NCBI GenBank assembly: GCA_964016885.1
Contig: OZ024741.1
Span: 349,432,001 to 349,496,000, forward strand
Direction of reading: 5' to 3'
Length of the DNA: 64,000 nt
DNA from: Eledone cirrhosa
Taxonomy: Eukaryota
Part shown: positions 31,101-31,812 of the stretch, one piece after another
Position numbering within the stretch: position 1 is the first letter of the stretch
Layout of the letters: every line of letters begins with the position of its first letter
Notes under the pieces: generated by a model
Told to the model about the DNA's origin: nothing
Seen by the model: only the letters and a program-made list of their open reading frames with translations
Databases searched by the model: none
Made by a program: the position numbers and the translations under genes

Positions 31101-31181
<81 letters not shown>

Positions 31182-31220
31182 ATATTAAACAAATGGAAAC
31201 TATATTTATAAAACCATATT

Positions 31221-31286
31221 TATTTCGTTATATATATTTCTGGGATATCATATTAAAAATATGTTATGCCTTCCTCAGACAAAATA
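31221..31286 (-). ncRNA. Minimal type I hammerhead ribozyme
   Basis: Minus strand reads tattttgt-CTGAGGA-aggcataacatatttttaatatgatatccca-GAAA-tatata-TA-acgaaata. Confidence 0.7.
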
Positions 31287-31441
31287 CAATACATAAGCTG
31301 TTTTATAAATAATTAGTGACATACCTTGTAATAATGCAACTTCCTTTTAAAAAGTTGATTTGGTAGTGAAACTGTTGAGTGCTTTTATATCAGTTATAAA
31401 ATATTTACTCGTTGTAACCCAACAATCTTAAATAAAACTTT

Positions 31442-31486
<45 letters not shown>

Positions 31487-31528
31487 ATGTATGTATGAAT
31501 GTATGCATGTATGTATGTGTGTGTGTAG

Positions 31529-31640
31529 TCTGAGTTTTTCGAATATTAATAATAATATTTGATTCGTTTGCAATTATGCAAACAGCCTCTTTTAAGCCTT
31601 TAAGCCATGGCAGTAGAATGAACCCCTCATCTTGCTCTTG
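31529..31640. mobile_element. Partial copy of the 24351-24621 fold-back element
   Basis: tctgagtttttcgaatattaataataatatttgattcgtttgcaattatgcaaacagcctct matches 24367-24428. Confidence 0.75.
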
Positions 31641-31707
31641 GATAGCGACCTCCAACCGTCAATGGTGTTCTTCTGCGGGTATGTCAACATTTATAAAACA
31701 AATTTTG

Positions 31708-31773
31708 TATTTTATCTGATGAAAGCGCACCAAAATTTGCCTTGGTTGCCCTTGAAATATATATAATAAAATA
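31708..31773 (+). ncRNA. Minimal type I hammerhead ribozyme
   Basis: tattttat-CTGATGA-aagcgcaccaaaatttgccttggttgccctt-GAAA-tatata-TA-ataaaata, with a perfect 8-bp stem I. Confidence 0.8.
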
Positions 31774-31812
31774 ATTATGGTTTTATAAATATAGTTTCCA
31801 TTTATTAATATA

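Follow-up and report, generated by a model that had tools for sequence, protein, structure and literature searches.

An inverted pair of predicted hammerheads at a TA microsatellite in Eledone cirrhosa: probable short copies of two Hydra-type PLE subfamilies

The hammerhead ribozymes of metazoan PLEs (Cervera and de la Pena, 2014; PMC4209133) are of type I with a short palindromic helix III. The same survey already described families with compensatory changes, represented mostly by single truncated copies, and opposite-strand pairs of hammerheads 100-700 bp apart. The Hydra clade of PLEs, which includes Hydra-1_Obim of Octopus bimaculoides (Craig et al., 2021; PMC8557442), combines an ORF ending in a C-terminal GIY-YIG domain with (TA)n targets and a hammerhead near the 3' end. 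Its definition (section 11 of that paper) comprises RWK, DKT, a CxCx5C linker, CxxC and CxH motifs and no CCHH, and the role of the hammerhead in endonuclease-bearing PLEs is called unclear there. In the Anolis Poseidon element PAc (Frangieh et al., 2024; PMC11167929), two internal RT start sites set the tail, the targets are AT-rich, uncut RNA serves as template, and no reads were found at the hammerhead cut site.

The pair described here lies in a window of 64,000 nucleotides, the whole stretch of DNA analysed, from Eledone cirrhosa (GCA_964016885.1, contig OZ024741.1, positions 349,432,001 to 349,496,000, forward strand). Its left (L) and right (R) arms share the type and the helix III of the metazoan PLE hammerheads; the elements behind them share the ORF motifs, targets and hammerhead position of the Hydra clade, the AT-rich targets of the anole element and, by analogy, its two internal start sites and uncut template. 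We consider it very probable that each arm is a short 3' pseudo-LTR copy from one of two Hydra-type PLE subfamilies, with a hammerhead predicted to depend on dimerisation or protein. The two copies likely entered the same TA microsatellite in separate events.

Arrangement and predicted fold of the two arms

The positions and motifs that a preliminary description had given for both arms were correct when checked against the sequence. The homology it saw in their flanks is borne out by an alignment of 76.7% over 129 nt (E 4e-22, in the window) between 31310-31182 on the minus strand and 31689-31811 on the plus strand. The arms point away from each other and each 3' end enters a TA tract (Table 1). 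A descriptor recovered from both the series stem I, CUGA-N-GA, 31-nt stem II, GAAA, UAUAUA, UA and stem I, with the CUGANGA, GAAA and NUH cores in type-I order. Each arm is a hammerhead of type I whose loop III is palindromic (dimer type), and the variable core position differs between them as had been described (G in L, U in R).

Table 1. Features of the locus, in window positions
Feature	Position	Strand	Remark
Pseudo-LTR end of subfamily L (main arm)	31180-31376	-	Ends at the first 3' end; adjoins a TA tract
Type-I hammerhead of L	31221-31286	-	Core CUGAGGA (C3) from 31278; predicted cut after 31229
Splice-donor-like GTATGT in L	31319-31324	-	43 nt downstream of the Inr-like site; putative intron
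Inr-like CACTA, 5' end of the L main arm	31364-31368	-	Likely RNA start
Inverted tail of the same L insertion	31369-31445	+	Joined via 8 nt of microhomology (31369-31376)
TA/TATG/TG microsatellite separating the insertions	31446-31527	.	Seen in the sequence
Ribozyme-less 3' end of family X, a third repeat family with hammerheads	31528-31640	-	2434 exact matches of a 25-nt word
Micro-inversion of 6 nt at the 5' junction of the right copy	31640-31645	-	Seen in the sequence
Pseudo-LTR end of subfamily R, tail-less	31644-31815	+	Followed by a TA tract
Splice-donor-like GTATGT in R	31679-31684	+	Putative intron
Type-I hammerhead of R	31708-31773	+	Core CUGAUGA (C3) from 31716; predicted cut after 31765

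Helix III comprises 1-2 bp with a palindromic loop, and AUAUAUAU is predicted to form an 8-bp intermolecular duplex of -3.2 kcal/mol. The L and R hammerheads are predicted to cut only as a dimer or with the help of a protein. The hammerhead was not the lowest-energy fold of either monomer (z -1.2 and -1.3; 4.0 and 5.5 kcal/mol above the MFE), and low monomer stability is expected for metazoan PLE hammerheads (PMC4209133). Between L and R, stem I differs by a G-C/A-U double change, rightly pointed out before as keeping the pairing, and by a U·G/U-A change that had been overlooked. The stem II sequences, previously called very different, do form pairs in both arms, but they are not unrelated: they align without gaps and differ by three further double changes, and in both of them pair 4 is a C·C mismatch. 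The base of stem II in the left arm is A·A. Neither arm matched the Rfam hammerhead families at E<=10. Rfam searches of the window and region returned just microsatellite-driven miRNA matches and two tRNA-like matches, the latter identical in score and placed within a TA-rich satellite (49527-49588 and 50526-50587 in the window).

The left copy is self-contained, consisting of the L main arm and its own inverted tail, and the same make-up occurs elsewhere in unrelated flanks (20 loci, chosen for that make-up). Because this copy is closed by its own tail, and the microsatellite and an X end intervene, the L and R arms are not one unit. The two subfamilies are related, as the preliminary description proposed, but 'back to back' is a loose term for their insertion, since the L tail, the microsatellite and the X piece lie between the arms. 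Separate insertions into a TA hot spot are the simplest reading of the locus, and the copies residing here are likely inert.

The right copy departs from the usual pattern in having no tailed partner. R adjoins X directly, with no microsatellite, at its usual 5' end and with a micro-inversion, and these features would agree with a right part that is a single insertion, in which an R cDNA was joined head to head with an X cDNA by a mixed RT dimer or template switch. Out of 48 matches, with 40 of the 1190 candidates scored, this locus alone had the junction, which also favours such an origin, yet we think it unlikely: both arms would be tail-less, contrary to the one-tail pattern, and a junction of this type was present in just 1 of 29 R copies. 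Moreover, a tail-less copy at another locus (L017) joins plain flank alike, and loss of target DNA at insertion would also explain the arrangement. In a read-through transcript of 31180-31815 the two arms would pair as a long duplex; the sense hammerhead would then be blocked, and the duplex could serve as a substrate for A-to-I editing.

Other repeats were seen in the window. A perfect inverted pair of another hammerhead family at 14290-14600 (loop III UGCGCA; cores at 14388, minus, and 14523, plus) resembles a MITE but fits a single PLE-type insertion, and short inverted hammerhead pairs may be mislabelled as MITEs. A further hammerhead family with an inverted partner, at ~5720-6150, has an intact core at 5796 on the minus strand and likewise a C·C mismatch in stem II; 24340-24650 holds an inverted pair of X 3' ends without ribozyme. 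At 30540-30860 lies a partly duplicated short interspersed repeat, which we take to be SINE-like; it is frequent in the sampled loci and sometimes found within PLE tails. Among these loci, L143:281-3381 comprises eleven 310-bp head-to-tail units with a hammerhead in each (loop III CGCG) and looks like a non-LTR retrozyme, and L149:6638-7694 and L124:6464-6986 contain tandem hammerhead units of ~525 bp, in which stem II is long and loop III reads CUAAUUAG. The octamer word ATGCAAAT occurs 70-110 nt upstream of the cores of several hammerhead families (L117, L181, L121, L180); a promoter role for it would be a guess.

Host element, insertion anatomy and 5' ends

Longer copies of L and R carry an RT/GIY-YIG ORF upstream, on the same strand as the hammerhead, ending 1238 nt (L) and 1386 nt (R) from the core. 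Over 381 aa the L and R proteins share 64% identity, and 268 homologues were found. The RT with C-terminal GIY-YIG in this position and orientation, and the pseudo-LTR partial tandems, inverted 5' copies and tail at one end seen among the copies, are features of EN+ PLEs. Hammerhead and tail directly preceded the ATG in a partial tandem at 2 loci (25 loci were chosen by the 5' part of the ORF, 5 were placed by probe and 2 of these were tandem), with the ATG ~50 nt beyond the tail. Both ORFs contain RWR, DKT, YRDD, CxCx5C, CxxC and CxH and no CCHH, matching the Hydra clade save for RWR in place of RWK, and the targets are (TA)n as in that clade. Assigned by these motifs, the host of both arms would fit a Hydra-clade PLE. 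Pfam gave no match for 3 of 3 ORF pieces, and a PDB search was empty or at chance. Neptune and Nematis (CX2-5CxxC linker, CCHH) were ruled out because a single Cys lies between the GIY and YIG equivalents; a non-LTR retrozyme, with head-to-tail tandems and a hammerhead in each, was ruled out by the inverted arms and ORF-bearing families; and an ORF antisense to the hammerhead was dropped, such cases being inverted junctions. No ORF was seen upstream of family X in the loci examined, and X is therefore PLE-like by anatomy only. A 789-aa open frame at L067:3463-5829 belongs to a different PLE with CCHH-type endonuclease cysteines, so that further PLE clades are present in the genome.

Clade ends were inspected by eye in 140 stretches of 10 kb: of the 32 ends, half (16) stop at the first 3' end and the other 16 are tailed, and one arm was tailed in 10 of 10 inverted pairs. 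The two fixed 3' ends are ~90 nt apart, and the flanks are TA-rich. Among 38 neighbouring hammerhead pairs less than 1 kb apart, same-family inverted pairs faced outward 11 to 0; the 13 pairs of different families comprised 8 convergent, 3 tandem and 2 divergent ones, the last facing apart as here. As a mechanism we propose that the element protein would nick (TA)n and that, by analogy with the anole element (PMC11167929), reverse transcription may be primed at both internal sites of uncut RNA. Both cDNAs could join head to head in one insertion, which would leave one arm tailed, and many cDNAs would stop at the RNA start within the pseudo-LTR, yielding short hammerhead-only copies.

The 5' ends of R were mapped in 30 copies chosen only by sequence downstream of the cut. 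Eleven ended inside a 5-nt window at the Inr-like site (p ~2e-9 against a uniform distribution) and two extended past it; in an earlier, partly overlapping set, 17 of 29 ends fell in a 13-nt window. The Inr-like CACT is kept across diverged subfamilies, ~39-45 nt before a kept donor-like GTATGT. Judging from these sequence features, the Inr-like site is likely the RNA 5' end and the short copies cDNAs that ran to it, and the putative intron would contain the hammerhead. L/R copies also show a small cluster of 5' ends at the stem II entrance.

The motifs of L and R might alternatively be structural signals (RT binding, pausing or splicing control) that no longer cut RNA. R copies cross the cut site intact, with only 1-2 of 30 starting within 15 nt after it, and the anole element mainly uses uncut RNA and still inserts when its core is mutated (PMC11167929). 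We nevertheless hold this to be improbable, since the core words and NUH stand at the right spacing and the varied self-complementary loop III across families fits selection for dimer catalysis.

For family X, 44 arms among the matches listed yielded 36 true ends once 8 with internal deletions had been set aside. Seventeen lay at +1 to +15 of the predicted cut, four of them exactly at +1, against one at -15 to -1 (p 1.4e-4 for this pattern); a second X set gave 6 against 1 of 10 (p 0.125), with none at +1. RT stalling also fits these ends, because X has a long stem I with a 3' strand that spans about +1 to +12, and the small L/R cluster at the stem II entrance likewise counts against cleavage. 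We put cleavage in vivo as the source of the X ends at slightly less than an even chance. A broader reading, which we offer tentatively and with more doubt than belief, is that the genome is a fossil record of ~2×10^5 hammerheads, mostly short pseudo-LTR leader cDNAs. Those of L/R would extend to the transcription start of an uncut template, with the ribozyme likely within an intron, and those of X would begin at the cut site of cleaved RNA. If true, insertion 5' ends would reveal which PLE families have a hammerhead that cuts in the germ line, and thousands of dated insertions with sharp 5' ends could map RNA starts, and possibly cleavage, from DNA alone. The pair at this locus is itself ordinary for PLE-rich genomes; the population behind it could matter.

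Covariation and copy number

The preliminary description regarded the changes between the arms as evidence that RNA structure had been conserved and proposed a covariation analysis of family alignments. The alignment of the L/R clade had 36 rows (4 of 38 haplotypes, which were mis-anchored, deleted or superseded by the rows from the window, were excluded, and 2 rows were added). In this clade 94.3% of cells were paired, against 39-55% when slid, and cell counts beat the shuffles (0/500) with a margin inflated by kinship; the number of pairs with double changes was no better than in shuffles (100/500). The stem-I pair with the double change was A-U in 19 rows, G·U in 11 and G-C in 6, with G-C only in the L tip, and ranked 1985 of 2415 column pairs; stem II pairs ranked 3, 28 and 53. 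True pairs were not separable from ancestry by MI with APC, and RNAalifold recovered stem II and not stem I. A single event passing through G·U accounts for the stem-I change, which by itself lacks significance.

Across families, motifs were chosen by core words and a self-complementary loop III only, blind to stem pairing. The scan gave 122 matches, against 6.4 per shuffle, with stem I 90% paired against 36% when slid. The test of covariation used 20 families with at least two copies (14 singletons were left out), one of which does not pair. Paired cells amounted to 93 of 100 in stem I and 63 of 80 in stem II, against 46 and 32 when permuted; 0 of 20000 permutations were as high, a count given without a formal p value since the families are partly dependent. 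Each of the first five stem-I positions showed three or four Watson-Crick pair types, the C·C mismatch at stem II pair 4 was present in 7 of the 20 families, and loop III took many different self-complementary sequences. Many families in the genome have thus kept the predicted ribozyme fold, as is known for this class. The earlier claim of conserved structure therefore holds across families, where covariation is strong, but the arm pair alone is weak evidence for it, the stem-I change being confined to one tip clade and covariation within the L/R clade partial.

Shared ancestry, or hairpin repair in single-stranded cDNA, is very unlikely to account for the covariation as a whole. Within the clade, many unpaired columns covary equally strongly and 13 of the 17 column pairs passing the pairing filter are not true pairs, which favours such an origin; against it stand the excess of pairing over permutations in the 20 families, which were defined by their flanks, and the fact that pairing always surrounds a catalytic core in the right orientation.

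The 3.0-Gb genome was sampled systematically in 140 stretches of 10 kb, with a lean towards large chromosomes. The pairing descriptor matched 105 times in these 1.4 Mb, eleven of the matches coming from one tandem array, and in 53 of the 140 stretches (shuffles 2, 2, 2; reversed 0), which extrapolates to 2.2×10^5 hammerheads in the genome (bootstrap 1.6-3.1×10^5). Exact genomic copies of the 42-nt core numbered 347 for L and 213 for R (reversed control 0), and a 25-nt word of family X had 2434 exact matches. Each core being identical to hundreds of genomic copies, selection acted on master elements; the compensatory changes are real but were fixed there and not at this locus. That the arms are inverted ends of one insertion or MITE-like unit, diverged in place under structural selection, is largely refuted and scarcely credible: same-family inverted pairs are common in the genome and 31180-31815 folds as one long hairpin (-200 kcal/mol, z -15), but TA repeats inflate that score, the identical copies of each core are dispersed within its own subfamily, and the left copy is complete with its tail.

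Relation to known PLE hammerheads

Published work already covers PLE hammerheads, families with compensatory changes, hammerhead pairs on opposite strands, tails on one side only and the Hydra clade. Many of the Hydra-clade motifs listed in PMC8557442 have a mismatch at the stem II base, as here, whereas the Hydra-1_Obim hammerhead has other stems and another loop III, so L and R are different families. With 3' UTRs of 1.2-1.4 kb, the L/R element is longer than the usual Hydra element of <3 kb, its tail measures ~90 nt against 30-40 nt in the clade, and it forms pseudo-LTR tandems (PMC8557442). The recurrent C·C at stem II pair 4 differs from the metazoan PLE hammerheads in the accessible text of PMC4209133. 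The ORF of the anole element begins within the hammerhead (PMC11167929), whereas the ATG lies past the tail here. Penelope of Drosophila virilis has a promoter in the pseudo-LTR and an intron 46 nt after the start (PMC2377424), and Pen2a of Adineta vaga has an Inr-like TCACT and inverted pseudo-LTRs (PMC3846280); compared with these, the start site and intron of L/R are putative, and the intron would include the hammerhead.

Neither 'ribozyme' nor 'hammerhead' occurs in the accessible part of a 2026 octopus repeat annotation. The openly readable literature yielded no study that counts octopus hammerheads or places 5' ends at a start or cut site. A 2017 paper by Lunse et al. in RNA Biol reportedly treats many dimer-cleaving PLE hammerheads, and cephalopod motifs or the C·C mismatch may already be among its contents. 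The ~2×10^5 hammerheads estimated here compare with ~9,000 in Xenopus (PMC4209133), although the descriptors differ and the numbers are not strictly comparable. This number, the Inr-like starts, and the X starts just past the predicted cut as a possible trace of cleavage go beyond the known picture of PLE hammerheads.
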